Below are positions 13,570-55,705 of a stretch of DNA of 64,000 nt, piece by piece. Source of the stretch: Bacilli bacterium (lineage in GTDB: Bacteria > Bacillota_I > Bacilli_A > ML615J-28 > CAG-313); NCBI GenBank assembly GCA_045652765.1, contig JAZOLG010000041.1, positions 7,310 through 71,309 on the forward strand, written 5' to 3'. The notes below the pieces were generated by a model. The model ran no database searches. It was not told the origin of the DNA and was given only the letters and a program-made list of their open reading frames with translations. Position 1 is the first letter of the stretch. The number at the start of each line of letters is the position of its first letter. The position numbers and the translations under genes were made by a program.

Positions 13570-15087
13570 GTGAAGAAAATTAGAAAAGTTATCCCCCCAA
13601 TTTTGGGCTTTTCTAACAATGATATGAGTGATAGTGTAATTAAAGATGTTGCGACTCGTACTAATGGAGAAATCTACTTAGGCGTAGTTGGTTCAGTTAG
13701 AAGTGGGAAAAGTACTTTTATTCGTCGTTTTATCGAAAGAAAAGTACTACCTTTAGTGGATGAAGAAAGCGTGAAACAAAAAATAATTGATGAACTTCCA
13801 CAAAGTGGTGATGGTAAAACAATAATGACAGTTGAACCTAAATTTATACCAAGTAATCAAACGTTTATCAATTTTGAAGATATAGGTTTTAACGTCAGAC
13901 TTGTAGATTGTGTAGGATATGTTATTCCGTCATCAAAAGGTTATTTAAATGAGGATGGTTCTAATAGAATGGTGAAAACACCTTGGTTTACCGAAGAGGT
14001 TAGTTTTCAAGAAGCAGCAACAATTGGAACAAAGAAAGTTATTGATGCTCATTCACATGTAGGAATTATTATTACAAGTGATGGAAGTTTTGGCGAATTT
14101 ACGGAAAATGAATATGACAATGTTTTAGAAAAAGTAGTTGGTGAATTACAAAATGCTGACAAACCATTTGTAATAGTATTAAATACAATATCACCTAATA
14201 GTGATTATGTAAAAGATAAGGTAGAAAATTTAAAAGAACAATATGGTACTGCAGTAATAGCATTAAATGTCAACGAAATGACGGAAAATGATATTGATAA
14301 TCTTCTTAAAGAAGCATTAAGTGAATTTAAAATCAATGATTTATCAATTGATTTGCCAGAATGGGTTAGTAATTTAAGTTCAACTATTTCATATAAATCT
14401 CAACTTAATCAAGTTTTAAATGATTTAAAAAAATATGAAAGAATGAAAGAAGCATACTCTTTACAAGATACTCTAGTACAATCAGGATTATTTGAATCTG
14501 CTAAAATTACAGAAATTGACTCTGGAACAGGTAATGTAACAATTAGTTTGGAAGTGAATGATGATATTTATAGTTCTTGTATTGAAGAAATAATTGGTGA
14601 TAAATTAGATGATAAAGCAAAACTTATAGAAATTTTACAAGACTATCAAGAAAATAAAATCATGTGCAACAAAATTAAACCAGCTTTAAAAGGTTTAGAA
14701 ACGCAAGGATATGGTATAGCTTTGCCAGAAATCACTGATATGCAATTGTCAAACCCGGAATTATCTAAACAAGGTGGAAGATACGGCATTAAAATAAACG
14801 CTACTGCACCGGCTATTTTTATGGTTAAAATAGATGTCGAATCTTCATTTGAACCAATTATTGGATCAAAAGAGCAGGCTGAAGTGTTAGTTGAACATAT
14901 GACTAAAGATAGTAATGAAAATATTTGGAATAGTGAAATTTTTGGAAGAAAATTGTGCGATGTTATTAATGATGGTGTAAGAGCTAAAATTAATGCTATT
15001 CCAGAAGTTGTTCAGTACAAATATAAAGATGCAATTAATAAAGTTGTTAATAAAACTAAAGGCGGAGTAATAGCAATTGTATTATAA
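13570..15087 (+). CDS. spoIVA: Stage IV sporulation protein A (coat morphogenetic ATPase); start GTG 13570 or ATG 13624
   Basis: IYLGVVGSVRSGKSTFIRRF, MTVEPKF, RLVDCVGY, C-terminal GGVIAIVL; followed by HU as in spoIVA-hbs. Confidence 0.95.
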   Translation: MKKIRKVIPPILGFSNNDMSDSVIKDVATRTNGEIYLGVVGSVRSGKSTFIRRFIERKVLPLVDEESVKQKIIDELPQSGDGKTIMTVEPKFIPSNQTFINFEDIGFNVRLVDCVGYVIPSSKGYLNEDGSNRMVKTPWFTEEVSFQEAATIGTKKVIDAHSHVGIIITSDGSFGEFTENEYDNVLEKVVGELQNADKPFVIVLNTISPNSDYVKDKVENLKEQYGTAVIALNVNEMTENDIDNLLKEALSEFKINDLSIDLPEWVSNLSSTISYKSQLNQVLNDLKKYERMKEAYSLQDTLVQSGLFESAKITEIDSGTGNVTISLEVNDDIYSSCIEEIIGDKLDDKAKLIEILQDYQENKIMCNKIKPALKGLETQGYGIALPEITDMQLSNPELSKQGGRYGIKINATAPAIFMVKIDVESSFEPIIGSKEQAEVLVEHMTKDSNENIWNSEIFGRKLCDVINDGVRAKINAIPEVVQYKYKDAINKVVNKTKGGVIAIVL

Positions 15088-15113
15088 AAAAAGTGGCTTT
15101 TTACCTATATTTT

Positions 15114-15142
15114 TTGACAAATGATTCAAAAAATGATATAAT
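15114..15142 (+). promoter_or_regulatory. SigA promoter (consensus)
   Basis: TTGACA-17-TGnTATAAT upstream of HU gene. Confidence 0.85.
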
Positions 15143-15161
15143 TGTTATGAGGTAATAAGAC

Positions 15162-15440
15162 ATGAAGAAAAAAGATATTATTGAAGCTATTTTCCAAAAT
15201 AATGAATATTATAAACAAGATATTGAAAATGTAGTAAATCAAGTATTTGAAATTTTAACAAAAGGATTAGAGACTGAAGATAAGGTAATGATTAGTAATT
15301 TTGGAACTTTTGAAAAAGTTTTGCAAGAAGATTACTATGGTGTTAATCCTATTACTGGTGAAAGACAACTTGTCAAAGGTGGCTATAGAATTCGCTTTAC
15401 TTCCAGCAAACATTTAAAAGAATGTATAAACAAAAAATAA
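15162..15440 (+). CDS. hup: HU/IHF-family DNA-binding protein (divergent)
   Basis: NFGTFE and NPITGE motifs, 92 aa; spoIVA-hbs synteny. Confidence 0.85.
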   Translation: MKKKDIIEAIFQNNEYYKQDIENVVNQVFEILTKGLETEDKVMISNFGTFEKVLQEDYYGVNPITGERQLVKGGYRIRFTSSKHLKECINKK

Positions 15441-15478
15441 GGCTTATTTCAAGAACAATTGTTCTTAAAAATAAGCCT
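15439..15478. terminator. Bidirectional terminator hairpin
   Basis: AAGGCTTATTT...AAATAAGCCTT with inner AAGAAC-AATT-GTTCTT, between convergent genes. Confidence 0.75.
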
Positions 15479-15482
15479 TTTT

Positions 15483-16352
15483 TTATATAAATTTAATAAG
15501 TAATAAATTTATTATTACTGATGCTGCATTGTTGAACATGTGAACAAGAGTAGGTACAACGAAGTTTTCATCAGAATCTGCATAAATGTATCCTAATACA
15601 CATCCCATGACACAATATGGAATACCAAGTAAAAATTCTGTAATGATTAATTTAAATGATGAACCATCTAAAATCATAATTAATATAGCGGTAGCAACAT
15701 GGATTCCTCCAAATAGTATACCAGTAATTAAAATTTTTAAATTTTTTGAAAGATTATATCGTTTTAAATAACTAAACATTGATTTTCTAAAAATTAATTC
15801 TTCAACAATAGGAGCTGCAATTATTAATATACCACAGTATAATATAACAGCAAAAGTTTGTGATGAATGTAACATATCAACAATTTGTGTTTGATTTTCA
15901 GATTCATCAACGATTCTAAGTAGCATTAAAACTAAATTGCATATGTAAGAGGCAATGTAAACAAAACAAATCCCTTTGCCAGCTTTTTTAAAAGTGCTTT
16001 TAAGATTAATTTTAGTTCTTAGTAAATCGTTCTGGATAGCTTTACGTAATAATAATACTAAAACTATAAATATAGCAAGATATACACTTATTTGTGTCCA
16101 TAAATTAACAAAATCTGAAAAATGCTGTGTATATACCAATTCACCGTTAGTGTTTTGATATCCACTTGGCATATCAAATATTAATTTATATAATGCCATT
16201 ATGATTGTTTGAGCAACAGATGATGCGAAATACATGCATATAAAGTAAATAATAATTGTTTTTAGATAATGGTTCGATGGATATTCAATATCAACAGATG
16301 AGGTAGATATTGAATCACTATTAATATCGATTGTTTTATTTTGATTATTCAT
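15483..16352 (-). CDS. CPBP (CAAX/Abi) family intramembrane metalloprotease
   Basis: APIVEELIFR, FGGIH, HMFNN motifs; SD GAAGGTGA supports ATG 16352. Confidence 0.9.
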   Translation of the reverse strand: MNNQNKTIDINSDSISTSSVDIEYPSNHYLKTIIIYFICMYFASSVAQTIIMALYKLIFDMPSGYQNTNGELVYTQHFSDFVNLWTQISVYLAIFIVLVLLLRKAIQNDLLRTKINLKSTFKKAGKGICFVYIASYICNLVLMLLRIVDESENQTQIVDMLHSSQTFAVILYCGILIIAAPIVEELIFRKSMFSYLKRYNLSKNLKILITGILFGGIHVATAILIMILDGSSFKLIITEFLLGIPYCVMGCVLGYIYADSDENFVVPTLVHMFNNAASVIINLLLIKFI

Positions 16353-16462
16353 TAAATCACCTTCTTTATTATAATATAACATTTTTACAAAAAAAATACA
16401 AATGTTATTATAAAAATTGGAATAAAACATAATTATATAGCGTAGTATTAATGAGGTGTTTT

Positions 16463-17311
16463 ATGAAGAAAAGAATAATAATAATTGTTGCTTGTATATT
16501 AGGTGTTGTAGCAATTACAGCATTAATTATACCTAAAGATGTTTATGCAAAATGGTTTGGTAAAAATAATGTCAATGAAAATCAAAGTGCATACAATTTA
16601 TTAGTATATACTAAAAGTGATAAAAACCAAGTTGTTGGCGTTAATGTTGGAGTGGAAACATTAGAAGAAGATCAAATAAGACAAAAATGGGATATTTTGA
16701 CTTCCAATTCTGATTTATTACCAGAAGGTTATGCTAGTTTATTGACTAAAGATATTGTATTAAATGATTATCAAATTGATGAAAGAACATTAAAATTAGA
16801 TGTTTCGGAAAATATCATAGATATAAATCGACAAGCATTGGAAGCTTTGGTGTGGACATATGTAAATGATGATATTGATAATTTAGAAATTTATGTCAAT
16901 GGTAAAATAATTAATGAAGTTAGTGATTATACATTTTATGAATTAAATAAGAATATGGGTATTAATTTAACATATGAAACATTATATTTATACGAGTCAA
17001 CTGCAACAACAGTTGTATATCATGAAGACAATTGCATACGTCCAGTTACATATTTTCATTTGAATGATGATTTATGTGATTATATTGTTATGAAAATATT
17101 AGATAATATTGATTTAAATGAATATGATTATACATTAGAAGACAGTGTATTAACCCTTGATTTTGTTGATGCAAGTATTCTATCAACTAATCAAATAGCA
17201 TCAATTTCTGAAACGGTTGCATTAAATTTTGATTTAAATAGTTTAAACATTAACAATAATGAAAATGTGTTTTATCAAAGAGTATTTAATGAAATTGTAG
17301 AAAACGAATAA
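16463..17311 (+). CDS. gerM: GerM-like sporulation/germination protein (GerMN domain)
   Basis: N-terminal hydrophobic anchor; GerMN-like LKLDVSEN...ALVWT...IYVNGK, GIN and PVT motifs; directly upstream of rdgB as in gerM-rph-rdgB. Confidence 0.65.
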   Translation: MKKRIIIIVACILGVVAITALIIPKDVYAKWFGKNNVNENQSAYNLLVYTKSDKNQVVGVNVGVETLEEDQIRQKWDILTSNSDLLPEGYASLLTKDIVLNDYQIDERTLKLDVSENIIDINRQALEALVWTYVNDDIDNLEIYVNGKIINEVSDYTFYELNKNMGINLTYETLYLYESTATTVVYHEDNCIRPVTYFHLNDDLCDYIVMKILDNIDLNEYDYTLEDSVLTLDFVDASILSTNQIASISETVALNFDLNSLNINNNENVFYQRVFNEIVENE

Positions 17312-17346
17312 AAAAGTGAAGAAATTCACTTTTTTATTTTATTGAC

Positions 17347-17375
17347 TTGAAAATTTATGAAAATAAGCGTATAAT
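17347..17375 (+). promoter_or_regulatory. SigA promoter
   Basis: TTGAAA-17-TATAAT. Confidence 0.7.
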
Positions 17376-17424
17376 AAGTAAATGTAAAAGGTAAAAAAAT
17401 AGAGATTGTATAAATGAGGTATTT

Positions 17425-18843
17425 ATGAAAGTATTAATTGCATCGCATAATAAAGGTAAAATTAATGAATTTAAAGATATATTAAAAAATTTAAATTTTG
17501 AATTTGTGACATTAAATGATTTTCCAAATATTGAAGAACCGGAAGAAAATGGTTTAACATTAAACGAAAATTCTTTAATAAAAGCTAAATATTATTATGA
17601 TCATTTTAAAATTCCTGTTATTGCAGATGACACAGGCTTATTTATTGATGATTTAGGTGGTGAACCAGGAATTAAATCAGCAAGATACTCTGGAATTAGT
17701 GAAAAAGCAAATAGAGAATTAGTACTGCAAAAACTAAAAGGTAAAATGAGTAATGCTTATTTTGAAACAGTATTAACTTTTTATGATGGTTCTAATGTTA
17801 TTACAGCTAATGGTATTATGCAAGGTATTATAAGTAATCAGGAAAAAGGAATCCATGGATTTGGATATGATTCTATCTTTTATTTACCTCAATATGAAAA
17901 AACGCTAGCTGAATTAGGCACTGAAATAAAGAATAGTTTAAGCCATAGATATCATGCAACTAACAATTTAAAAAGAAAAATTACTTTTTTTAATAATCTG
18001 AATGATGAAATTGAATATATTAAAACATTAATAACTAATAATTTATTTGAAGATGTTGTTTCAATTGAAAAAATCATTGGTGGAATGAGCAATAATACTT
18101 ATTTAGTAGAAACAAATAAAGGTCAATATACAGCTAGAATCCCAGGAATAAACGCTGAATTGTTTGTTGGCAGAATGAAAGAACTAGGAAGTTTGAATCT
18201 TGTAAGAAATAAACCATCATTTGTTCAATATACTTATTTTGATTTGCAATCAGGTTTTAAACTTTCTCCTTATATTATAAGAGAACAAAATGATTATAGC
18301 GAAGAAGCAATTGCAGAAGTACTAGATGAACTTCACAATTTAAGTAGATTCGAAAATGACTATAAACCATTTGATCGCTTTTTATACTACGAAAGACTTG
18401 TTGAAATATTTGGTATGAAGCTTGATGATGATTATTTTGTATTGAAAAACAAGATTTTATCATATCGTAATTATTTGGAACAAAGACCAAAAGTTCCATG
18501 TCATAATGATGCTCAATTATCTAATCATATTTTTAACAATAATAAGCACATTTTGATTGATTTTGAATTTACAGGAAATAATGATCCTTTGTTTGATTTT
18601 GCATGTTTAGGGAATGATGATTTAAATATCGGAAAAAATGCTTATAGTAAATTAGTACAAAGAGAATTAAGTGAAGAAGAAAATAAAGTAATTGAACTAT
18701 GGTATAGTTTACAAGCATTAAGCTGGTATTTAGTAGCAATGTTTAAATATGCTACAGGAATGAATAAGACGGCAGGATTAGATTTTAGTAATATTGCGAC
18801 TTATTTCCTTAAAAAAGCAGATGATTTGCTAAAGAATTATTAA
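17425..18843 (+). CDS. rdgB: Fusion: RdgB/HAM1 dITP/XTP pyrophosphatase + choline/ethanolamine-kinase-like phosphotransferase
   Basis: HAM1 motifs SHNKGK, ADDTGL, GFGYDSIF, SHR in first ~185 aa; GGMSN, CHND, LIDFEF kinase motifs after; single uninterrupted frame. Confidence 0.88.
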   Translation: MKVLIASHNKGKINEFKDILKNLNFEFVTLNDFPNIEEPEENGLTLNENSLIKAKYYYDHFKIPVIADDTGLFIDDLGGEPGIKSARYSGISEKANRELVLQKLKGKMSNAYFETVLTFYDGSNVITANGIMQGIISNQEKGIHGFGYDSIFYLPQYEKTLAELGTEIKNSLSHRYHATNNLKRKITFFNNLNDEIEYIKTLITNNLFEDVVSIEKIIGGMSNNTYLVETNKGQYTARIPGINAELFVGRMKELGSLNLVRNKPSFVQYTYFDLQSGFKLSPYIIREQNDYSEEAIAEVLDELHNLSRFENDYKPFDRFLYYERLVEIFGMKLDDDYFVLKNKILSYRNYLEQRPKVPCHNDAQLSNHIFNNNKHILIDFEFTGNNDPLFDFACLGNDDLNIGKNAYSKLVQRELSEEENKVIELWYSLQALSWYLVAMFKYATGMNKTAGLDFSNIATYFLKKADDLLKNY

Positions 18844-18877
18844 ATAATTTAATTTAGTAATTAAAACAACGTTTTTC

Positions 18878-18906
18878 TTGACTTTTTTTCGAAAATAATA
18901 TATAAT
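18878..18906 (+). promoter_or_regulatory. SigA promoter of rpsU
   Basis: TTGACT-17-TATAAT. Confidence 0.8.
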
Positions 18907-18943
18907 ATAGAAGATTTTATGGTGCGGAAGGAGGGACCAAAGA

Positions 18944-19120
18944 ATGCCAAAGACTATCGTTCGCGAAAATGATACACTTGATGAAGCACTAAAAAGATTC
19001 AAACGTGATGTTTCTAGATCGGGTACCCTTGTTGAAGCCCGCAAACGTCAACATTACATGAAACCAAGTGATATCCGCAAAGAAAAAAGACGTGCTGCAC
19101 GTAAAAATGGACATCGTTAA
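18944..19120 (+). CDS. rpsU: 30S ribosomal protein S21 (58 aa, not in ORF track)
   Basis: Hand translation [42 protein letters not shown]...; SD GGAGG. Confidence 0.95.
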
Positions 19121-19158
19121 TCATTAAAGTAAAATGGGCATTTTTATGCCTTTTTTCT

Positions 19159-19187
19159 TTCTAAAAGTATTATTTTGGTCATATAAT
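19159..19187 (+). promoter_or_regulatory. SigmaE-like promoter of yqfC-yqfD
   Basis: TTCTAAA-14-CATATAAT just after the rpsU terminator; the -10 also contains TATAAT but the -35 is a poor SigA match. Confidence 0.5.
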
Positions 19188-19201
19188 AATATGGTGATAT
19201 T

Positions 19202-19417
19202 TTGAAAAAAATATTTAAAGAGTTTTATGACCAAAATGTTTATATTAAAAATCAAAAAAGTGTACATATTGATAATTATAAAAAACTTTCTTATATTAGT
19301 GAACAATTAATCATAATTGATAATATTCAAATAAAAGGCAGCAATTTATATGTTTATGAACTTGATTCTTTTCAAATTCAGGTAGAAGGTGCAATAAATG
19401 AAATTTCATTTATTTAA
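19202..19417 (+). CDS. yqfC: YabP/YqfC family sporulation protein
   Basis: HIDNYKKL...IQIKGSNL...VEGAINEISF pattern; position before yqfD; TTG start with GGTGA SD. Confidence 0.8.
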   Translation: MKKIFKEFYDQNVYIKNQKSVHIDNYKKLSYISEQLIIIDNIQIKGSNLYVYELDSFQIQVEGAINEISFI

Positions 19418-20474
19418 AAGATATTTTATTTCTACTTCTTTCGAATGTTATAATAACAATTTAACGTATATTCAAAATATTGAAAGTAGACATGTCAAGA
19501 TAAAAAATGGAATTGTAACTTTTTACTCCAATAATTTTATAGATATTGAAGGTTTTAAATGCGAAAAAAAATTTAAACTTTTTATTAAAAATAAAATGGA
19601 GTATTATTTAATATTTATAGTTTTAATTATTAGCATTCTATTAATTATGTTTGTTTCTCCTTATTATATAAAAGAAGTTGAATATCAAAATGGTAGTATT
19701 GAAGATGAGATTATCTTTAATGAGACATCTGATTTAGTAAAAAAACACAAACAAGTTGACTTAAATGATTTGTCAAAACAATTTATGTTAAAATATCCTC
19801 ATTATTCGTGGATTAGTTTAAAGAAAAAAGGGAATATAGTTTTATTAAATATTGAATTAAATGAATTATCAAGCTTAAATTATTTAACTAATAATATACA
19901 AGGAGATTTTATAAGTGGATATGATGCTTATATTAAGCATATTATTGTAACTCAAGGAAAAGTTAATGTTGATATAAATCAAACAGTAAAAAAAGGTGAT
20001 TTATTAATTCTTGGCAATTTGCCTAAACAAAAAATCTCTCCATGTGGTATAATAATAGGAGAAATAGTTTATTCTAAAGAGATAACAATTTACAAAAATA
20101 ATATGATTAAATCATACACCGGAAATCTTATAAACTATCAGTATGTTAAACTTAAAGATAAACAAATTCATAAGAATAATAATACATATTTAGTATATAA
20201 AACAAGAACGAATAATATTTTTAGTTTATTTAATTTTATTAGTTATGTTGATGAAACAATTTATGAAATTGGTGATTTTTTAGTTCAATATGGTAAAGAA
20301 GATGCTATAATATATGGAAAAAGTATCATTTATTATGAACTGGAAAAACAAAGAACATCAAATAAAGAGAGTATTTTAAGTATTGATGTCTTGAGTATTA
20401 CCGAAAAAGAAGATCGATATGTTATTAAATTCTTAGTAAAAGCGGATAAAAATATTGTTTTGTTGAAACAATAA
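19398..20474 (+). CDS. yqfD: Sporulation protein YqfD
   Basis: TM segment, KKGNIVLLNI, YDAYIKHIIVTQG...VKKGDLLILG signature; yqfC-yqfD-phoH synteny. Confidence 0.85.
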   Translation: MKFHLFKRYFISTSFECYNNNLTYIQNIESRHVKIKNGIVTFYSNNFIDIEGFKCEKKFKLFIKNKMEYYLIFIVLIISILLIMFVSPYYIKEVEYQNGSIEDEIIFNETSDLVKKHKQVDLNDLSKQFMLKYPHYSWISLKKKGNIVLLNIELNELSSLNYLTNNIQGDFISGYDAYIKHIIVTQGKVNVDINQTVKKGDLLILGNLPKQKISPCGIIIGEIVYSKEITIYKNNMIKSYTGNLINYQYVKLKDKQIHKNNNTYLVYKTRTNNIFSLFNFISYVDETIYEIGDFLVQYGKEDAIIYGKSIIYYELEKQRTSNKESILSIDVLSITEKEDRYVIKFLVKADKNIVLLKQ

Positions 20475-20544
20475 TAAAAAATATTAATTGAATTCTTTGA
20501 AAAAATAACTTTATAGATTATAATATAGTTATAAGAGGAACTTT

Positions 20545-21501: not shown

Positions 21502-21934
21502 AGTTAACTTATGCAATAATTATGAATTTCTATTTAATGAGAAAAAACTAGTAAAAAAAATCGCAAAGAAAATTTATAAAGAAGAAAAGCTTAAAGGGAA
21601 ATATTTCTTAAGCATTATCATATTAAATAATGAAGAAATCCATAAAATGAATTATCAATATCGCGATATTGATGCACCAACAGACGTAATAAGTTTTGCT
21701 GCAATCGATGGTGAAGATGAATTGCCTGCTGAAATGGGAGACATTTTTATTTGCTATGAAAAAATCATCGAACAAGCTAAAAATTATGGTCATTCAGAGT
21801 ATCGTGAATTTGCATTTTTAGTGACACATGGTATTTATCATTTGCTTGGATATGATCATATGACTAAAGAAGAAGAAACAGTTATGTTTTCTAAACAAGA
21901 AAAAATATTAGAAATTTTGAAAATAGGTCGATAG
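21494..21934 (+). CDS. ybeY: rRNA maturation endoribonuclease YbeY
   Basis: TDVISF, HGIYHLLGYDH. Confidence 0.95.
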   Translation: MIKVNLCNNYEFLFNEKKLVKKIAKKIYKEEKLKGKYFLSIIILNNEEIHKMNYQYRDIDAPTDVISFAAIDGEDELPAEMGDIFICYEKIIEQAKNYGHSEYREFAFLVTHGIYHLLGYDHMTKEEETVMFSKQEKILEILKIGR

Positions 21935-21935
21935 T

Positions 21936-23235: not shown

Positions 23236-23248
23236 GTATAATTATTTA

Positions 23249-23284
23249 AAAAATATCCATCCTAATTGTGGGAGGGATATTTTT
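23249..23284 (+). promoter_or_regulatory. Stem-loop after era that encloses the SD of the next gene
   Basis: AAAAATATCC / GGATATTTTT 10-bp stem plus TCC/GGA; GGAGG lies in the 3' arm. Confidence 0.6.
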
Positions 23285-24153: not shown

Positions 24154-24198
24154 AGATAGAAAACTATTTATCTTTACTTTTTTATTTTGTCAAAACTA

Positions 24199-39689: not shown

Positions 39690-40196
39690 ATGACTGAAGC
39701 ATTAATGATAAAAAGATTAAGAAATCATGATGAAGAAGCTTTTGACTATTGTTATTTCACATATAAAAATTTAGTATACTTTCATATTATAAAAATAGTC
39801 AAAAATAAAGAACTTTCTGAAGAACTTATGCAAGATACTTTTTTGAAAATGTATCAAAGTATTGATAAGTTTGATGGAAGATACTTTAAAGCATGGCTTT
39901 TAAAAATTGCTGGAAATCTTGCAATTAGTGAACTTAGAAAAAATAATGATACTGTAGAGTATAACGACAACATTATTTCTAAAGAAGTTGTTGATATGTA
40001 TAGTCATAATGATTTAATGAGTGATTTAAAAGGAATTTTGACTGATGATGAGTACCTAATTGTTGTATACAAAATAATATATAATATGAAAATAAAAGAA
40101 ATTGCTGAAGTATTTAATATTCCTATTGGTACTGCTGGATGGAAATATAATGAAGCAATTAAAAAAGCAAAGAAATATTTTAAGGAGGTTAAATAG
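39690..40196 (+). CDS. ECF RNA polymerase sigma factor
   Basis: Region 2 (QDTFLK, FKAWLLKIA) and region 4 (IKEIAEVFNIPIGT); 168 aa. Confidence 0.88.
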   Translation: MTEALMIKRLRNHDEEAFDYCYFTYKNLVYFHIIKIVKNKELSEELMQDTFLKMYQSIDKFDGRYFKAWLLKIAGNLAISELRKNNDTVEYNDNIISKEVVDMYSHNDLMSDLKGILTDDEYLIVVYKIIYNMKIKEIAEVFNIPIGTAGWKYNEAIKKAKKYFKEVK

Positions 40197-40197
40197 A

Positions 40198-40761
40198 ATG
40201 AATATTAAAAATAAAATTCGTAGTTCATGGCATAATCCTAAATTACCTAATGATTTTCTAAAGAAAAATGAACTTGAATTCACAAAGACAAAGTCTTTTA
40301 GAATATCATTTCCTGCTTATTTTATTTCAATTGCTAGTTTGATAATTGCATTTGTATCAATTTTTGTTTATGCAAATTTTAAATTTAAGAAAAATGATTT
40401 AAATGAAACTCCAATAGTAAATATTGATTTTGGTACATTAAATCCAATAGAATTGTCAATAAAAGCTAATGAAGTTAATAAAATTCATATCAAAAATGTT
40501 AGTTATTATAATGTTAGAGGTAATTTTGCTTTGTGGTTTAACAATTTAGATATTAAAAAAAGCAAAGTTGATTATAACACGATTAATTTAAAAACATTTG
40601 TTGATGGTATTAATCCAGTAAGATTAGGTATTGCTAATGATGAGTATACATTATTTTTTACTAAACATAATTATTTAGTAGTCTGTTATTCTGATAAATA
40701 TATAATGTATGACTTGCCAAATGCAGATTTATTACTTGAAAGTTTTTCATCTTCCTTTTAA
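40198..40761 (+). CDS. Putative single-TM anti-sigma factor
   Basis: SD AGGAGG, ATG 1 nt after the sigma stop; short N-terminus, one TM, extracytoplasmic domain. Confidence 0.65.
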   Translation: MNIKNKIRSSWHNPKLPNDFLKKNELEFTKTKSFRISFPAYFISIASLIIAFVSIFVYANFKFKKNDLNETPIVNIDFGTLNPIELSIKANEVNKIHIKNVSYYNVRGNFALWFNNLDIKKSKVDYNTINLKTFVDGINPVRLGIANDEYTLFFTKHNYLVVCYSDKYIMYDLPNADLLLESFSSSF

Positions 40762-40787
40762 CATTTTCTAAAGTCTTGCATATAATA
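40758..40787 (+). promoter_or_regulatory. Promoter of spoVIF (fits SigA and sigmaK patterns)
   Basis: TTAACA-17-TATAAT overlapping AC-16-CATATAATA. Confidence 0.6.
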
Positions 40788-40803: not shown

Positions 40804-41034
40804 ATGAATCGAGTATTAAACTTTATTTCTGAAAACAATATTGATCCAGCGTCTTTATTTCAACTAGTAGAAAAAGTTCAACAAATGGACTTATCTAATG
40901 AAGAAAGTATTAGACAAGTGATAAGGGATGTTTCTAGACTAGCAAATCGTCCTGTTGATAAGAATCAAGAAAACAAAATTGTTCAAGAAATTTTGAAAAA
41001 TGGTATCAATGATAATTTATTTAACATGATTTAA
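40804..41034 (+). CDS. spoVIF: Stage VI sporulation protein F-like
   Basis: LFQLVEKVQQMDLSNEESIRQVIRDVSRLANRPVDKNQENKIV matches the SpoVIF pattern. Confidence 0.8.
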   Translation: MNRVLNFISENNIDPASLFQLVEKVQQMDLSNEESIRQVIRDVSRLANRPVDKNQENKIVQEILKNGINDNLFNMI

Positions 41035-45927: not shown

Positions 45928-45938
45928 GGGTTGATTTC

Positions 45939-46379
45939 ATGAAAAAACAAATTTTATATCTAGGTGTAATTGTAGGAATTGGGTTTGCAATTGGACTTGT
46001 TTCTGGTTTAAAAATTATGATAGATATAGAAGAAATAATTAAGGATAAAAATGGCATTGAAACATTTATCAATACTTTTACTATGAATTATTGGTATTTG
46101 TTTTTAATGATTATTTTAAATGATGGATTAAACATTATTGGTAATATATTTATTCTATTTGGAAAAGGAATAACTCTTGGGACCAGTTTGGGTATCCTTT
46201 TGAAAAATAAAGCTTTATTTGGCCTAGGAGTTTATTTGTTTAACTTTCTAGGCCAATTTATTATTTTATTGCCTTTAATGTTTGCGCTCATATTGGTTGA
46301 ATTTAAAAATATAAGAACAAAACTTGTAACTATGACAATCATAATTAGTTTGTATAGTTTTGTTATTGCGATAATATAG
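45939..46379 (+). CDS. spoIIM: Shortened SpoIIM-like membrane protein
   Basis: NYWYLFLMIIL...IIG, LFGKGITLG, GQFIILLP resemble SpoIIM helices; position before xerD as in spoIIM-(fur)-ripX-drm. Confidence 0.6.
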   Translation: MKKQILYLGVIVGIGFAIGLVSGLKIMIDIEEIIKDKNGIETFINTFTMNYWYLFLMIILNDGLNIIGNIFILFGKGITLGTSLGILLKNKALFGLGVYLFNFLGQFIILLPLMFALILVEFKNIRTKLVTMTIIISLYSFVIAII

Positions 46380-46387
46380 GAGGTTTT

Positions 46388-47287: not shown

Positions 47288-47289
47288 TT

Positions 47290-49378: not shown

Positions 49379-49493
49379 GCCTATTTTAGGCCTTTTTTTA
49401 CGTTTTTATACCTATATAAGTATTTATTCATTTTAATCAAAAAGTGCTAAAATATCGCATATTTTGGGCTTATTTTACACATATAAATAGTAG

Positions 49494-49553
49494 AAAAAGA
49501 GCTATTTACATAGATTTATAACTGGTTATAACTATGTATAAATAGCTCTTTTT
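49494..49553. repeat. 60-nt imperfect palindrome
   Basis: AAAAAGAGCTATTTA/TAAATAGCTCTTTTT + CATAG/CTATG + TTATAAC/GTTATAA. Confidence 0.8.
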
Positions 49554-49961
49554 ATTTGACAATTAAATTTCAAGCAAAATGGAAGTTTCTATATAAATGA
49601 TTAATTTATCAACCTAATAATAAAAGTGTCGAAATGATCATAAAAAGGGCTTATGTGAAAACTTAAATGGATAAATGTAAAAATTATTATAATTCGATTG
49701 ATTATAGAAGGGTTCTAAAAAGTTAAAAATCAGCAAGTATAAACTGTGTTTAAATAAAAGATGAAGCTTTATATAGGAATTCAAATATATAAATATTAGG
49801 CTGAAAAAAATCCAATTGATTATAGGAAGGTTTTATTATTATAAATATAAAAATATATTGGTAAAAAAAGAATAATCCACACTTTATAAACAAGTTATAA
49901 ACAATAATACACATATTATTGAATTAAACGATTTATCGGCTTATTGCCTAGATATTTAAGA

Positions 49962-49989
49962 AGTTAACATAATATATATTATAGGAAGT
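49962..49989 (-). other. dif: dif chromosome dimer resolution site
   Basis: Minus strand ACTTCCTATAA-TATATA-TTATGTTAACT; 2 mismatches to B. subtilis dif as recalled (ACTTCCTAGAATATATATTATGTAAACT); located at the gene-strand switch. Confidence 0.93.
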
Positions 49990-50230
49990 TATTTAAATAT
50001 TCTTTTATATAAGAAAAACACTTCTTTACTACATAAAATGATAGTTATTAATACGATTATTTGTCGAATTCTTGTATTATACATAAAATAAACTAACTCA
50101 TATTTTTAACATGAATATGTTTAAAATTTATAAAAGCATATCTTCTTGTCCCTTCTTATCAACATAATATATTAGGCGTCAAAAAAGCCCCAAAATCAAT
50201 TTAACCACTTGTTTTGAATAAATACTAGTC

Positions 50231-50308
50231 AAAAATAAAAAGCCCAAAATGGGCTTATTTTAGGCTTAAAAAGCAAAATAAAAACCCATATTATATATGG
50301 GCTTATTT
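50231..50308 (-). terminator. Tandem terminator-like hairpins
   Basis: AAGCCC-AAAAT-GGGCTT and CCCATA-TTATA-TATGGG, each flanked by A/T runs, at the end of the minus-strand operon. Confidence 0.65.
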
Positions 50309-51115
50309 ATTGAAATCTATTTGATCTGTTATTGTAATATTTAGCTTTTCCGCAAATTTATATGCTTCTATAGTAAACTGATCATTAAAATCATCAACAC
50401 TATGTGAATCATCATTGATTACAACAGTTAATAAATTGTTTTTTTGATACTCGCTTACAAGCTTCCAAAATTCTAAATGTGGATATTTATAAAACTCATC
50501 TTCGAGTAAATGACCTGTTTTACGATAACAATCTCTAATTCCATTAGCATTTATTTCTAATACAATATTATGGTCAATTGCTGCTTCAATTATTTGTCTA
50601 GACACTTCTTGACATACATCATCAAATACTGGATATGTATACATAAAAATTTCAGGATGTGCAAGAATTTTAAATAAACCAGTTTTGATTGCTTCGACAA
50701 TTGTATTACCGTAGATTTTGATAGTCTCATGATTTTGTTTAAAATAAATACTTTTAAATTCACCATTTACTTCAATTTGATGTTGTCCAAGAACTAAATA
50801 GTCAACTGAATTCCGCATTTCTAGAAGTCGAGTTAAATAACTGTTCGAATATTCTATTTCGAACGCTCCTAGAAGGGTTATTTGATCAGAATATTTATTC
50901 TTTAAATATTTAATTTCTTTTAAATAATCAATTGATTCACTCATCGACATTCTTCTAGAATGCCATTTTTCCGTTAATTCGTCTGATATAGGTCCATGAT
51001 CACTAATACCTAATACTTTATAACCATTTTCAATTGCTTTTAAAATATATTCTTCAATTTTGCCAGTTGCATGTTTACATAGATAAATGTGAGTATGATA
51101 ATTAGATATACGCAT
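50303..51115 (-). CDS. PHP-domain histidinol-phosphatase (HisJ-like) family
   Basis: NYHTHIYLCKHA, ISDHGP, LAHPE, EINANG, NDDSH; SD GGAG supports ATG 51115. Confidence 0.88.
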   Translation of the reverse strand: MRISNYHTHIYLCKHATGKIEEYILKAIENGYKVLGISDHGPISDELTEKWHSRRMSMSESIDYLKEIKYLKNKYSDQITLLGAFEIEYSNSYLTRLLEMRNSVDYLVLGQHQIEVNGEFKSIYFKQNHETIKIYGNTIVEAIKTGLFKILAHPEIFMYTYPVFDDVCQEVSRQIIEAAIDHNIVLEINANGIRDCYRKTGHLLEDEFYKYPHLEFWKLVSEYQKNNLLTVVINDDSHSVDDFNDQFTIEAYKFAEKLNITITDQIDFNK

Positions 51116-51116
51116 A

Positions 51117-52157
51117 TTAGTCTCCAAAGTATCTTGAAATAGGTGTCTTACTATCTGGATTCTTACGCCATTTAGCACTTCTTCCTGTTCCTAAAGGCAT
51201 AATTACACCATCATCTCTTAATTTATTTAAAATACGATTGATTGTAGCATCACTAACGTTGGGATTAGCTCTTCTTATATCATCTTTGCTAAAAAATTCA
51301 GGTAATTTATAGATGGTTGTTTCGACATTATCACTTTTTAACCCTTTATTTTGGTATTCCCAATGATGATTAAATTCTGAAAGCTCGTTATAAGTTTCAA
51401 TAATAATATCAAAAACTAAACGACTTAAATTACTAGAAGAAATAAAACCTTCTGTATAGTTGATAGAAGCATTTTTAGTTTCTTCTTGAAATTTATCGTA
51501 GTACTTATGAATCAACTTAAAAAAACTTAAATAATTAAAAATTTTAAGATTATTTTGAAGTAATAAATAGTATAAACCTAGAATTGATGCTAATCCATTC
51601 ATTCCATTATAAGGTTCTAAATTTACTATATCTAAATATAAAGTAATAGAAAGTATAATAGGTTCATATTTTTTTAAAGAAATATAATCATCATATTCAT
51701 CAAAACACTCGTTTATAAGCATTCGAATAGTCTTACGTATTGGTTTTTTATTTTCAAACGCTGTGAGAGACTTTGTAGTATAACCAAATTTGTTTTTTCC
51801 AAATATTTGATTAACATAACCGATAAGTTCTGCAGCATTTAAACGATATTTTGAAGCCTCAGATCTTATAATTTTAAGAGTTCTTTTAATATTTAATAAT
51901 AGTTCTTCTTGTTGATTTCTAGGTGCTGAATCTTTGAATAAAATTAATTGTTTTCTTTGATCTTTTACATCAATATTCAATAAATCAGCAAGATAATAAG
52001 TGTCCTCATTTAATGAGTCATTACTTAGTTTATCTAAAATATCATCAATTTGTTCTAAATAAATATCAGTTTTACCAACATTTTTGTATGCTTCAAGCAT
52101 TGAAAGTAACAAATCTGATGGTAGAATATAATGTTTAAGATTATTAAAGTTACTCAT
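51117..52157 (-). CDS. Fic-like protein with degenerate active site and C-terminal winged HTH
   Basis: EPYNGMNGLASI where HPFxDGNGRxxR is expected; C-terminal FSKDDIRRANPNVSDATINRILNKL...GTGRSAKW. Confidence 0.7.
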   Translation of the reverse strand: MSNFNNLKHYILPSDLLLSMLEAYKNVGKTDIYLEQIDDILDKLSNDSLNEDTYYLADLLNIDVKDQRKQLILFKDSAPRNQQEELLLNIKRTLKIIRSEASKYRLNAAELIGYVNQIFGKNKFGYTTKSLTAFENKKPIRKTIRMLINECFDEYDDYISLKKYEPIILSITLYLDIVNLEPYNGMNGLASILGLYYLLLQNNLKIFNYLSFFKLIHKYYDKFQEETKNASINYTEGFISSSNLSRLVFDIIIETYNELSEFNHHWEYQNKGLKSDNVETTIYKLPEFFSKDDIRRANPNVSDATINRILNKLRDDGVIMPLGTGRSAKWRKNPDSKTPISRYFGD

Positions 52158-52771
52158 TAAATGATACCCCTTTCTTTTTTAGAATATTCACATCCACAAT
52201 AGTTTTGTCGATACATTTCGTATTGTTTAGAAAGTTCTATTGAACGTTTATAACCATCTTTTAGTTTGAAATTTGAGTATATAAAAGGTATGCCAACTTC
52301 TTTTGCAAGTTCAAATCCAATTTCATTAATCCAATTACTGTTTTTATGGGGACTAATACTAAGTGTTGTTGTCCAGAAATCATAACCTAATTCTTTAGCT
52401 TTTAGTGCTGTTTTACGCATTCTAAATTTATAACAATTATAGCAGCGTATACTTTTTTCTCCTAACTCTTCAAGTCCGCTAATAGCGTTTGAAAAGTCAG
52501 ATTTAAGGTAATTACCAATTAATACGCTAGAATTAGGGGTTAAAATAGAACTAATTCTTATTTGTTCAGTTGTTCTTTTGTTGAATTCTTCTTCTGTATC
52601 AATATTTGGATTGTAGTAAAAGATATCAATATCTAACCCCTTTTTCATTAACTCAATACATGCTGAACTACATGGTCCACAACAACTATGTAGTAATACT
52701 TTATATTTTTTATTTTCTTCGATAAGTGATAATAAATCATTATAAGATTCGATATTTTGCATTATTTTCAC
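52157..52771 (-). CDS. queH: Epoxyqueuosine reductase QueH (DUF208)
   Basis: LLHSCCGPCS, YYNPNI, CYNCY, TTTLSISPHK, YRQNYCGC. Confidence 0.92.
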   Translation of the reverse strand: MKIMQNIESYNDLLSLIEENKKYKVLLHSCCGPCSSACIELMKKGLDIDIFYYNPNIDTEEEFNKRTTEQIRISSILTPNSSVLIGNYLKSDFSNAISGLEELGEKSIRCYNCYKFRMRKTALKAKELGYDFWTTTLSISPHKNSNWINEIGFELAKEVGIPFIYSNFKLKDGYKRSIELSKQYEMYRQNYCGCEYSKKERGII

Positions 52772-53648
52772 CTTTAAAAAACAATGGTATTACAGTTAAG
52801 GCAACAAAAGCCATTATAAAATATCTCAACATATCAAAGATGTTATGCATTGGGAATATTAATTTTAATCCACTTTTTAAACCAATAGTAAAGATTATAC
52901 CAAGTATGACACGTATAAGTTTATTTTTAAATGATACATTGGTAGTAAATTTAATATAGTTACTTTCAATAATATTTGAACTAAAAACTGCTAATGCTAA
53001 ACCAAAACTTTTAAATAAATCAACACAATTAGCATTGTTAATATTTATAATTAAGAAAGGTAATGTTACTACTACAACAATAATATAAATTAGATATAAA
53101 AATTTTGGATTTTTAATGTTATCATAAAAATAATTTAAACTATATGCAATGCCGATACCTAGTAATAAACCAATGAAAACATCTCCAAAAAAATGAACGC
53201 CAAGATATAGTCTTGAAATAGGTACGAGAATCAACAAAATAATAGAAATTATCTTAACTAGTTTAGGAATTTTATTAAATATTAAACTAGAATATAATGC
53301 TCCCGCATTTTGACTATGGCCAGATGGGAAACTTGTACCTGTTGCACCATCAGATGATGGAATTTTTCTTAGATATTCTTTGCCCGCAAATTGAAATGGA
53401 CGTTTAGCTAAAAATAAAGATTTAAATATACCATTAAATATAAATGATGTTGACAAAATAAAGGCTAATTTTTTTGCAAAGTCTTTATTAATACAATAAT
53501 AATATAATAGTATTATTGCAAAAACAATTTCTCCAGATCCAAATTCAGTAATAAATTGAAAAATAGGATTCAAAACATTACTTGAAAAACTATGAAAAAA
53601 ATCCAGTATTTTCCATTCAAAAGAGTTACGATATTGAAAATAATTCAT
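52740..53648 (-). CDS. PAP2 family membrane phosphatase
   Basis: KSLFLAKRP, SFPSGH, SRLYLGVHF. Confidence 0.9.
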   Translation of the reverse strand: MNYFQYRNSFEWKILDFFHSFSSNVLNPIFQFITEFGSGEIVFAIILLYYYCINKDFAKKLAFILSTSFIFNGIFKSLFLAKRPFQFAGKEYLRKIPSSDGATGTSFPSGHSQNAGALYSSLIFNKIPKLVKIISIILLILVPISRLYLGVHFFGDVFIGLLLGIGIAYSLNYFYDNIKNPKFLYLIYIIVVVVTLPFLIININNANCVDLFKSFGLALAVFSSNIIESNYIKFTTNVSFKNKLIRVILGIIFTIGLKSGLKLIFPMHNIFDMLRYFIMAFVALTVIPLFFKGENNAKYRIL

Positions 53649-54398
53649 CTAGCCACGCTTTCTTAAGTTCTTTTCTTGTTTTGCTTTACCATATAAGGTT
53701 TTGATTTCGTGAATTGTAAGAGTACGAACATAACCTACTGGTAAATTTTCCAATGTAACAGTTCCAAAGCGTGTTCTAGTAAGTTTTTTTACTTTATGAT
53801 TTATCGCTTCAAACATATTTTTAACTTGATGGTTTTTGCCTTCGGTAATAACAATTCTTACTAAACTTGAATTATGTGTGCGATCAACAGATTTTAATGT
53901 AACAAAAGCTGGCAAATAACTAATACCTTTATACTTAAGACCTTTCTTTAGTGGTACTAAATCTTGTTCGTTTACAATTCCATCAACTCTTGCAAGGTAT
54001 TCTTTTTCTACTCCACTAGTAGGACCAACCATTTGATACATAAAATCGCCATCATTAGTTAATAGTAAGACACCTTTAGTATCATAGTCTAAACGACCAA
54101 TGGGGAAAACATTGTATTGTTTTATTTCGTTAGGAAGAATATCGATAACAGTTTTGCGCTTTTTATCATCCTCTACCGAACAAATATATCCACTTGGTTT
54201 ATTTAAAACAAAGTAAACTTTTTCATTAGTTGTTATAACTTGATTGTCAACTTTAATTAAATCAGAATCTTTAACTAAATAACCCATTTCTGTAATAATT
54301 TGATTGTTGACACTTACTCTACCTTCTTTAATTAATTCCTCTGCTTTTCTTCTAGATGCAACACCACTAGCTGCAATTCTTTTTTGTAATCTTTCCAT
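53649..54398 (-). CDS. rluB: 23S rRNA pseudouridine synthase RluB (RsuA family)
   Basis: MERLQKRIA.SG.ASRRKAE S4 domain, GRLDYDT, EGKNHQVK. Confidence 0.92.
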   Translation of the reverse strand: MERLQKRIAASGVASRRKAEELIKEGRVSVNNQIITEMGYLVKDSDLIKVDNQVITTNEKVYFVLNKPSGYICSVEDDKKRKTVIDILPNEIKQYNVFPIGRLDYDTKGVLLLTNDGDFMYQMVGPTSGVEKEYLARVDGIVNEQDLVPLKKGLKYKGISYLPAFVTLKSVDRTHNSSLVRIVITEGKNHQVKNMFEAINHKVKKLTRTRFGTVTLENLPVGYVRTLTIHEIKTLYGKAKQEKNLRKRG

Positions 54399-54469
54399 AA
54401 TAATTTTTCTCCATCGTCTTATTATACTAAAAAAAACGAAAAAAGTAAACTAAAAACCATATTATAAAT

Positions 54470-54500
54470 AAAAATACAATGTGTAACACATTGTATTTTT
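54470..54500 (-). terminator. Intrinsic terminator
   Basis: Perfect 14-bp stem AAAAATACAATGTG-TAA-CACATTGTATTTTT. Confidence 0.8.
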
Positions 54501-54574
54501 GACTTATAAGTCGTTTTATAGAGGTTGAAATTAAAAATTGTGAGTAATTGTTCATTCAAATGCTAAAAAAAGAC

Positions 54575-54832
54575 TTATAAAATTTTTTTGAGTATATAAT
54601 TATCAGTAACATAATTAATGTTTTGTAAATTAAACTTATTCATATTATCAATTCTACTTTTTAAGAATGGAACATTTTCTATATTGCTAGAGAAATCTGT
54701 TTTTAAAAAATCAAATGTTGATTGATTATTTTCGACTTTCTTATACGTTAATATATTAGTTTTTAAATCTAATCTAATTTTACCAATTAATTGGTTGTTA
54801 TAATATAATTCATAATCATGGTATAAATTCAT
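54575..54832 (-). CDS. Small hypothetical protein (weak HipA N-terminal-like)
   Basis: SD AGGAG, own promoter and terminator; ELYYNNQLIGKI...TY...FLKSRI. Confidence 0.7.
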   Translation of the reverse strand: MNLYHDYELYYNNQLIGKIRLDLKTNILTYKKVENNQSTFDFLKTDFSSNIENVPFLKSRIDNMNKFNLQNINYVTDNYILKKIL

Positions 54833-54855
54833 ACTTTACTCCTATTTACTATCAA

Positions 54856-54884
54856 ATTATAACAAATAGAAAATCATTTGTAAA
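54856..54884 (-). promoter_or_regulatory. SigA promoter
   Basis: Minus strand TTTACA-17-TGnTATAAT. Confidence 0.75.
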
Positions 54885-54889
54885 ATTAT

Positions 54890-55705
54890 TTAACCAAATT
54901 TGTTGGCAAGATAACTATGAGATTTCCAATCATTGGAATCGTTAAATGTAACAATAATTAAATCTTTATTTTTTCCTTTATAAATACTTACTAATGTTCT
55001 TCCTGCTTTTTTGGTATAACCGGTTTTTCCACCGATAAAATTAGAATCACTTAAGATTAATTTATGTTTATGTCGGATGGTTAGAGTTTTATTGTCTAAT
55101 CTAATTTGATAACTTTTAGTGCCCAATAGCTCTTTTAAAAAAGGATACTTAATAGCTTCTTTAGTTATAAGTGCAAAATCATAGGTTGTTGTATAATTGA
55201 ATTCATCTTCATCCAAACCACTACTATTGTTAAATAAACTATTTTTAAGATTTAATTTAGTAACTTCTTCGTTCATTTTTAAAATAAAATCTTGTGGATT
55301 ATCGGAGTAAGCATATTGTAATGCTAAAGCCGCATCGTTTCCACTTTGTAAAATAAGTCCATATAATAATTCTTTAACAGTAATTACATCACCAATTTCT
55401 AAATACATTCTTGATCCTACTGCTTTATTAATTCTATCATCAATTAAAATAGTTTTATTTAAATCAATATTTTTATAGACTGTTAAAGCTGTTAATACTT
55501 TTGTAAGACTTGCAGGCAACATTTTTTGGTGAATATTTTCTTCATATAAAATTTGGTCATTATTAATATCGTAGACAATAGTTGATTTATTGTTAGTGTT
55601 AGACAATACTAATAACGTATCACCTTTGGTTTTATAAAATAATATTAAAGTTAATAAGATAACATATAAAATAATCCATATAAGAATAATTATTTTTTTT
55701 CTCAT
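54890..55705 (-). CDS. dacB: D-alanyl-D-alanine carboxypeptidase (S11, DacB-like)
   Basis: N-terminal hydrophobic anchor; SxxK (PASLTK), SxN (SGNDAA), KTG (GGKTGYT); upstream of rluB as in dacB-spmA-spmB-rluB. Confidence 0.85.
   Translation of the reverse strand: MRKKIIILIWIILYVILLTLILFYKTKGDTLLVLSNTNNKSTIVYDINNDQILYEENIHQKMLPASLTKVLTALTVYKNIDLNKTILIDDRINKAVGSRMYLEIGDVITVKELLYGLILQSGNDAALALQYAYSDNPQDFILKMNEEVTKLNLKNSLFNNSSGLDEDEFNYTTTYDFALITKEAIKYPFLKELLGTKSYQIRLDNKTLTIRHKHKLILSDSNFIGGKTGYTKKAGRTLVSIYKGKNKDLIIVTFNDSNDWKSHSYLANKFG

Follow-up and report, generated by a model that had tools for sequence, protein, structure and literature searches.

A reduced sporulation set of about 25 genes has been predicted in about 90% of the family CAG-313 and about 50% of CAG-698 in the order ML615J-28 (Field, Bowerman and Hugenholtz, 2024, Microb Genom, PMC10868615). 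A streamlined sporulation machinery has also been described in spore-forming Erysipelotrichaceae such as [Clostridium] innocuum and Erysipelatoclostridium ramosum (Galperin et al., 2022, bioRxiv 10.1101/2022.02.25.481979). In this study, a 64,000-nucleotide stretch of DNA from a Bacilli bacterium of the family CAG-313 was analyzed (the window; contig JAZOLG010000041.1 of assembly GCA_045652765.1, positions 7,310 to 71,309 of the forward strand). It carries seven sporulation genes, namely spoIVA, gerM, yqfC, yqfD, spoVIF, spoIIM and a dacB-like gene (Table 1). We consider it probable, at roughly 0.7, that these genes belong to a streamlined endospore programme that was inherited vertically and probably works, of which the window carries one part. 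This reading is carried by the presence and orthology of the genes, their co-inheritance across the order and the purifying selection on most of them. The initial annotation of the window had presented sporulation in this lineage as a new suspicion. A reduced and divergent endospore programme in this order is already published (Field et al., 2024), and the present work mostly confirms it.

Sporulation genes of the window

Table 1. Features of the window, with positions counted from its first nucleotide.
Feature	Position	Strand	Description
spoIVA	13570..15087	+	Spore-coat basement-layer ATPase, 505 aa, full length, uninterrupted
gerM orthologue	16451..17311	+	Predicted N-terminal anchor and two GerMN domains, 286 aa, uninterrupted
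yqfC	19202..19417	+	YabP-family sporulation protein, 71 aa, uninterrupted
yqfD	19398..20474	+	Stage IV sporulation membrane protein, 358 aa, uninterrupted
spoVIF	40804..41034	+	76 aa, uninterrupted
spoIIM orthologue (predicted)	45939..46379	+	Shortened polytopic membrane protein, 146 aa, uninterrupted
S11 DD-carboxypeptidase at the dacB position	54890..55705	-	Catalytic domain only, 271 aa, uninterrupted
hbs (HU), neighbour of spoIVA	15162..15440	+	PF00216, 81.4 bits; same order in L095 and L096
sigmaE-like promoter candidate upstream of spoIVA	13500..13527	+	TCATATT, 14 nt, CATAAAAT; regular-expression match; nearly conserved in L096
sigmaK-like promoter candidate upstream of spoVIF	40761..40787	+	AC, 16 nt, CATATAATA; same offset in L098
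85-aa ORF at the expected spmAB place	54575..54832	-	C-terminal remnant of a 297-aa gene, resemblance by eye

All seven open reading frames (ORFs) were intact, as the initial annotation had stated, and the lengths it gave, with a full-length SpoIVA among shortened proteins, agreed with them. Profile searches supported five of the products directly. SpoIVA scored 498.7 bits against TIGR02836 (curated cut-off 459.9) and carries PF09547, PF20438 and PF20439, which span residues 22-505 and include the Walker-type ATPase domain. YqfC scored 31.7 bits against the YabP family PF07873 (cut-off 27) and 20.6 bits against TIGR02856, far under its cut-off of 77.8; the gene lies directly upstream of yqfD and overlaps it. 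YqfD reached 90.7 bits against PF06898 (cut-off 25.2) and 80.6 bits against TIGR02876 (under 256.7), and its orthologue in the congener L096 bears a PF06898 annotation. SpoVIF, which is 82% identical to its congeneric counterpart, reached 65.9 bits against PF14069 (cut-off 27) and 47.8 bits against the equivalog model NF052662 (under 130). The DacB-like protein matched PF00768 with 167 bits over residues 38-257. The C-terminal PBP5 beta-sandwich domain was not reported in it by the Pfam scan, and the protein ends at residue 271; the name dacB is used provisionally, from the position beside an RluB-like gene only. The two remaining assignments, GerM and SpoIIM, drew no direct match and were supported by way of their orthologues.

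The GerM-like protein had no Pfam or NCBIfam match at E ≤ 0.01, and the Germane domain (PF10646) was also unmatched in a six-frame search of the host genome. In six-frame searches of 40 relatives, the domain was found in proteins of about 285 aa at the same position, hbs-CAAX protease-X-rdgB. GerM homologues at 37-78% identity carry PF10646, one of which is named "GerMN domain-containing protein" by NCBI. A hidden Markov model (HMM) built from four of the PF10646-positive syntenic proteins of relatives matched only the gerM ORF of the window (E 4e-85), and the top PDB match of a profile of 16 close homologues was B. subtilis GerM (6GZB, E 2.1e-7). The AlphaFold model of the protein (pLDDT 82.9, pTM 0.76) was aligned with the tandem GerMN structure 6GZB at E 8.9e-16 and TM 0.66-0.69 over 259-279 columns. 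As modelled, the gerM product has an N-terminal membrane anchor followed by two GerMN domains. With both domains present, the missing length would therefore lie outside them.

The 146-aa SpoIIM-like protein had no direct Pfam or NCBIfam match either, and PF01944 was unmatched in the host genome. The proteins of relatives at the same hemW-X-xerD-deoB position, 161-192 aa long, scored 27.7-54.9 bits against PF01944 (cut-off 26.9). An HMM built from five of these PF01944-positive proteins had the 146-aa ORF as its sole match among 4359 host ORFs (E 1.4e-13). The alignment revealed a shorter N-terminus, the loss of a segment of about 18 residues before the C-terminal hydrophobic stretch, and a shorter C-terminus; a form of 145-146 aa is kept in near relatives, down to 60% identity. 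These comparisons indirectly confirmed the ORF as the predicted spoIIM orthologue.

The flanking anchors MiaA, MutL, MutS, Obg, L27, Prp, L21, the RluB-like synthase, DeoB and XerD were confirmed by NCBIfam, and the rest of the gene order was mirrored in congeneric contigs with precomputed Pfam labels. The window has the order rpsU-yqfC-yqfD-phoH-ybeY-cdd-era-recO. We take the same order to exist in B. subtilis, together with spoIVA-hbs, gerM near rdgB, spoIIM-xerD-deoB and dacB near rluB. The synteny described in the initial annotation held for the anchors of the window, the B. subtilis side being our assumption. Its word "dispersed" had to be given up: the genes look dispersed because they are placed at ancestral Bacilli positions, presuming this B. 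subtilis map.

The initial annotation had also listed spo0B, spmAB, cotE, dacF-spoIIA and spoIVF as missing neighbours. All of them are absent locally, but dacF-spoIIA and spoIVFB were found elsewhere in the genome and are relocated, not lost; spo0B, spmAB and cotE were absent from their usual places in the window, no genome-wide search for them having been made. The cluster dacF-spoIIAA-spoIIAB-sigF-spoVAC-spoVAD-spoVAE-spoVAF sits on contig C42. The 141 bases at the end of the window's contig (C41) recur at the start of the 2.9-kb contig C36. Joining the two completes ppdK and brings trxA and a 191-aa SpoIVFB-like M50 protease upstream of rplU. The protease gene lies about 3.6 kb upstream of rplU, presumably near the B. 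subtilis spoIVFB position, and its product has the motifs HExxH (HEIGH) and NPLDG; a further partial ORF upstream (102 aa) had no family match.

Sporulation genes of the host genome and its relatives

The whole-genome check proposed in the initial annotation found spo0A, sigE, sigF, sigG, sigK, spoIIE, spoVA, small acid-soluble spore protein (SASP) and mur genes, so that Spo0A and the four sporulation sigma factors are all present. The genes recN, spoIVB and spo0A stand together, with 278.8 bits for Spo0A (cut-off 200) and 316.7 bits for SpoIVB (cut-off 305). In the dacF-spoVA cluster, SpoVAD scored 439.7 bits (cut-off 402) and SpoVAC/E 206.9 bits, and sigF was assigned by its position after spoIIAA-spoIIAB. 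The sigE gene (160 aa, cut by a contig end) adjoins sigG, and SigE and SigG are the best NCBIfam matches; SigK, with a pro-sequence, scored 273 bits (cut-off 252). SpoIIE is a divergent membrane protein with 166.7 bits against a curated cut-off of 491. SpoIIR (PF09551, 58.4 bits), YunB (PF09560, 72.2 bits), SpoIIIAH (PF12685, 48.8 bits, cut-off 30.6), an alpha/beta SASP (PF00269, 53.4 bits) and GerA (238 bits) were also found. The SASP gene follows iscS-thiI, which we take to be the position of B. subtilis sspA, and GerAA and GerAC are accompanied by a putative GerAB permease that had no family match. SpoIIQ, a degenerate M23 protein of the bacillar type, was identified by its best NCBIfam match (152.7 bits), as were CwlD (198.8) and PdaA (231). 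Further NCBIfam scores were 323 for GPR (cut-off 120), 171 for SpoVT, 112.5 for SpoVG (cut-off 108) and 67 for YlmC (cut-off 44). A SpoVS-like protein without NCBIfam match was recognised by motif only, and CotJB- and CotJC-like genes precede ftsZ. No YabP paralogue was detected by phmmer with YqfC, and motif searches gave no match for SpoIIIAA or SleB/CwlJ.

The comparison set consisted of 41 genomes of the order, which splits into two families among them, and prevalence was counted on genomes at least 90% complete. The spoIVA gene is intact in 29 of the 41. Among the genomes passing the completeness threshold, SpoIVA occurs in 17 of 18 in the host's family and 8 of 16 in the sister family (about 94% and 50%). 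SpoIVA, Spo0A, SpoIIE, GPR and SpoIIGA occur in a nearly identical set of sporulation-positive genomes. All five are missing in G013, G027, G028, G031 and G038-G040, and four of the five in G026 and G029, where the SpoIIE model gave only weak and short matches. Such retention or loss of the whole set is what a working module maintained by selection would show.

Most of the window's sporulation genes are under purifying selection. The ratio of nonsynonymous to synonymous substitution rates (dN/dS) was calculated by the NG86 method for pairs with L095 and L096/L098 (two congeneric species), and it is only rough, because dS was about 0.8-1.5 and near saturation. Values of 0.04-0.12 were obtained for spoIVA, 0.09-0.23 for gerM, 0.11 for spoVIF, 0.19 for spoIIM and 0.10 for dacB, compared with 0.03-0.2 for neighbouring housekeeping genes. 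No ratio lay near 1, the outcome that the initial annotation had named as telling against its reading, the highest being those of yqfD and yqfC, to which we return below.

Candidate promoters precede spoIVA and spoVIF (Table 1). Matches to the sigmaE-type motif numbered 34 genome-wide against 21-38 in shuffled sequence, that is, without enrichment; the candidates are suggestive only, because such motifs are not enriched across the genome, and no regulon is claimed. Of 73 genome matches to the sigmaK-like motif, eight are gene-proximal, that of spoVIF among them. Motifs of this kind (AC, 16-17 nt, CATAnnnTA) were also seen close upstream of murA (C29:65195-66436), of a gene for a 76-aa LuxR-type GerE-like regulator (C20:49200-49430) and of ylmC/ymxH (C7:1938-2201).

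The host assembly is a metagenome-assembled genome (MAG) of 1.45 Mb in 65 contigs, with 28.5% GC, 89.9% completeness and 0.1% contamination, and the window has 28% GC and long clean ORFs under the standard code (table 11). A Mollicutes-type genetic code was rejected on these ORFs and on the tRNA-Trp of the genome, which has the CCA anticodon only; there was no sign of TGA reassignment. Genome sizes across the order are 1.0-2.1 Mb. The SpoIVA of the window had no record in an exact look-up. An alignment-based search with SpoIVA retrieved relatives recorded as 'Staphylococcus sp. CAG:324' (host's family), 'Coprobacillus sp. CAG:698' (sister family), 'Bacillales bacterium UBA1427/UBA3946', 'Acholeplasmatales bacterium DTU056/067', 'uncultured Mollicutes bacterium UMGS1109' and ruminant-gut 'Bacilli bacterium' MAGs. 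The term Mollicutes-like reflects the labelling of relatives in public records, not cell biology, and the host is most likely an uncultured, walled, small-genome gut member of the class Bacilli, order ML615J-28, family CAG-313. This placement is an inference from the membership of CAG:324 and CAG:698 in the two families and from SpoIVA prevalences that match the published ones.

The wall-less framing of the initial annotation did not survive the inspection of the genome, in which MurA-G, a PBP1A-family protein and DD-carboxypeptidases were found. MurD, MurB and the PBP1A-family protein were above the NCBIfam cut-offs, MurC, MurE, MurF and MurG were best matches below them, and a MurA-type protein of the EPSP_synthase family scored 224.2 bits in Pfam. 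Two S11 carboxypeptidases, CwlD and PdaA complete the wall enzymes found. Judging from these genes, the organism appears to be walled, as was also predicted for CAG-313 by Field et al. (2024, PMC10868615). A paralogous pair of 438-aa proteins of the Mur-ligase family was noted as well (C10:39973-41289 and C39:2573-3889), of which the C10 copy was scanned and gave a weak MurE match (107 bits); a third MurE-like protein has 457 aa. The 438-aa pair may be linked to muropeptide salvage.

Outside the window, the sole SEDS (FtsW/RodA/SpoVE) gene found in the assembly (C50:9683-32162) is interrupted after codon 98 by an insert of about 21.4 kb. The gene lies just upstream of murG-murB-cotJB-cotJC-ftsZ, and the rejoined protein of 363 aa scored 408 bits as SpoVE, its best match, and 383 bits as FtsW. 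The splitting element carries three large serine recombinase genes, genes that by size and N-terminal sequence resemble by eye a type I restriction-modification system, and the inverted ends ACACTTAAAT / ATTTAAGTGT. A 93% identical relative (L100) has an intact SEDS gene with an empty site in the same context, and an independent sample (L099) has the same right-hand junction; the insertion is therefore real and recurrent. Among mother-cell genes, sigK, spsM and gerE are known to be interrupted by elements that are excised during sporulation, and for spoVE our literature search turned up no report of such an element. The SEDS element may be a simple knock-out, or it may behave as a skin-type intervening sequence that only the mother cell excises; in the latter case, this part of wall synthesis would be confined to sporulation.

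Some neighbours of the sporulation genes are worth recording. Directly upstream of spoVIF (39690-40761, +), a 168-aa extracytoplasmic function (ECF)-type sigma factor gene overlaps a gene for a 219-aa protein that crosses the membrane once and may be an anti-sigma factor, and the trio with spoVIF is conserved in L098. RdgB (Ham1) is fused to a choline-kinase/APH-like domain in a 472-aa protein (17425-18843, +) that has the same length in L095 and L096 and a dN/dS of about 0.15-0.21. Between this gene and yqfC lies rpsU (S21, about 58 aa, ~18945-19121, +), which is too short for the 60-aa limit of ORF calling, and a 71-aa ORF annotated at this place on the minus strand is probably spurious. At the expected spmAB place, the 85-aa ORF had no family match and resembles the last ~85 residues of a 297-aa protein that is intact between rluB and dacB in L098 (18701-19594).

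Proposed mechanism and rival explanations

The course of the programme can be proposed from B. subtilis and from the spore-formers among the Erysipelotrichaceae, which supply all regulatory links and the expectation of spores themselves. Spo0A would trigger asymmetric division, SpoIIE with SpoIIAA and SpoIIAB would release sigmaF, and SpoIIR with SpoIIGA would activate pro-sigmaE. The mother cell would then make SpoIIM, SpoIIIAH, GerM, SpoIVA, YqfC/D and DacB, and the forespore SpoIIQ, giving a minimal SpoIIQ-SpoIIIAH-GerM bridge without the other SpoIIIA proteins. Next, sigmaG with SpoVT would direct SASP, GPR, SpoVA and SpoIVB, and on a signal from SpoIVB pro-sigmaK would be processed by the short SpoIVFB-like protease. 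SigmaK would then drive spoVIF and other late genes. Finally, CwlD, PdaA and the DD-carboxypeptidases would tailor the cortex, and GerA-type receptors would trigger germination.

Several observations weigh against a working programme. SpoIIP (PF07454) and SpoIIIAE (PF09546) were found in 0 of the 41 genomes, as was DpaA at E ≤ 1e-10, the DpaB and Etf-type alternatives not having been searched for. The SpoIID domain (PF08486) is absent from the host's genus, and in the rest of the order it is confined to proteins of 580-930 aa, which non-sporulating relatives carry too. SpoIID and SpoIIP are present in nearly all of 76 spore-formers and are considered indispensable (Galperin et al., 2022, 10.1101/2022.02.25.481979). 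In addition, yqfC (dN/dS 0.68, 44% identical to its congener) and yqfD (0.46) evolve fast at a dS near saturation; their lengths are nonetheless kept. SpoIIID was not found, by motif search only. The assembly also lacks spoIIGA and the 5' portion of sigE, owing to a break within sigE at the end of C40, which no other contig overlaps; genomes of the same genus do have spoIIGA. The incompleteness of the assembly counts on this side as well, and so does the dependence of orthology in part on synteny and co-distribution, since many matches fell under the NCBIfam cut-offs. To our knowledge, no member of the order has been cultured and no spores have been observed.

The missing SpoIID and SpoIIP, which leave septal wall thinning unexplained, are the main argument for regarding the genes as a relic or repurposed set, in which no endospores are formed today and the genes serve another differentiation or envelope function or decay slowly. 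The order-wide absence of SpoIIP, canonical SpoIID, SpoIIIAE and DpaA agrees with this explanation, as do the high ratios of yqfC and yqfD, the split in the sole SEDS gene and the many Spo0A-positive Firmicutes that are asporogenous. However, more than 30 sporulation genes are intact, including the forespore-only SASP, GPR, SpoVAC/D/E and GerA receptors, for which no other role is known, and pro-sigmaK, SpoIVB and the SpoIVFB-like protease are retained together. Moreover, the joint loss of the genes in some sister genera points to a working module, and ratios of 0.04-0.23 resemble those of the housekeeping neighbours. We therefore regard a relic as unlikely. The initial annotation had left a reduced programme and repurposed genes side by side; the regulatory and structural set, the inheritance as a block and the purifying selection favour the former and disfavour repurposing.

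The same absences would have a technical origin if the organism were an ordinary, essentially complete spore-former, and the losses of SpoIID, SpoIIP, SpoIIIA and DpaA reflected HMM failure in an AT-rich, fast-evolving lineage or gaps in a draft that is 90% complete. Proteins with low or no scores are indeed present, as seen for SpoIIE (167 against 491), YqfD (81 against 257), SpoIIM and GerM, and spoIIE, yqfD and spoIVFB had been called absent by Field et al. (2024). But the Pfam models of SpoIIM and GerM did match in some of the 41 genomes, whereas those of SpoIIP and SpoIIIAE matched in none. A Pfam scan of 82 N-terminally anchored host proteins of 140-430 aa recovered CwlD, SpoIIQ, SpoIIIAH, SpoIIR, YunB and PdaA, and no SpoIIP or SpoIID among them. 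The loss of SpoIIIAA-AG is also independently documented in the related Erysipelotrichaceae, and an ordinary spore-former seems quite improbable. That sporulation genes of another organism entered the assembly by binning or misassembly is hardly credible, even for a MAG of 65 contigs: the genes share long contigs with the housekeeping genes that flank them and have the same GC content of ~28%, the estimated contamination is only 0.1%, and independent assemblies, among them a 401-kb JGI contig, show this gene order too.

Within the favoured reading of a streamlined programme, we put forward tentatively, and with more doubt than belief, that true endospores are formed in this order with a smaller engulfment kit than in any case seen so far, without SpoIID, SpoIIP, SpoIIIAA-AG and DpaA, so that septal thinning and forespore feeding would follow an undescribed route. 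Just as speculative is the part left to the scaffold SpoIIM and the SpoIIQ-SpoIIIAH-GerM bridge, which such a kit would have retained.

Comparison with related sporulation gene sets

Spore formation governs the oxygen survival and the host-to-host passage of strictly anaerobic gut bacteria. If the organisms sporulate, they would lend themselves as a natural minimal system for studying engulfment in the absence of the DMP hydrolases, and selection with ethanol or chloroform might aid their culture.

Compared with B. subtilis, the window holds orthologous families at what we take to be the same map positions, with a full-length SpoIVA and a GerM that, as modelled, keeps both GerMN domains. Against the lengths we assume for B. 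subtilis, the other proteins are shorter: 146 vs ~214 aa for SpoIIM, 271 vs ~382 for DacB, 71 vs ~93 for YqfC and 286 vs ~366 for GerM. The partners spmAB, cotE and spo0B do not occur in the window where they would be expected.

The Erysipelotrichaceae compared here are those proven to form spores. In both groups, only SpoIIQ (bacillar type) and SpoIIIAH, a strictly conserved pair in endospore-forming Firmicutes, remain of the nine-protein Q-IIIA complex, GerM and SpoIVFB are kept, SpoIIID was not found (by motif search only in our case), and there is no Spo0B-type neighbour. These Erysipelotrichaceae differ in their genomes of 3-4.7 Mb and in apparently retaining SpoIID and SpoIIP, according to the near-universal counts of the survey (Galperin et al., 2022), while in ML615J-28 both are missing and SpoIIM is kept. 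Furthermore, the host has an operon of GerAA, a putative GerAB and GerAC, in contrast to GerAA alone.

A further counterpart, most likely from the same lineage, is the set described for ML615J-28 by Field et al. (2024), with which our results agree in the family prevalences, the small genomes, the peptidoglycan genes, the vertical inheritance of a reduced sporulation set and the independent losses within the order. They differ in the finding of divergent forms of spoIIE, yqfD, an alpha/beta SASP and a short SpoIVFB-like protease. Of the absences reported in that study, only that of spoIID was confirmed, and SpoIIP, SpoIIIAE and DpaA were additionally detected in none of the 41 genomes. What is new is the gene-level inventory for one genus, the order-wide non-detection of these three proteins, and the recognition that the published absences of spoIIE, yqfD, spoIVFB and SASP are divergence past the thresholds of KEGG Orthology (KO) and equivalog models. 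KO-based catalogues over-call losses in fast-evolving lineages, and the true losses are narrowed to SpoIID, SpoIIP, most of SpoIIIA and DpaA. The comparison supports the published view of a stepwise and repeated loss of sporulation and cell wall towards mycoplasma-like bacteria, along which a 1.5-Mb lineage often filed under Mollicutes retains a coherent spore programme.

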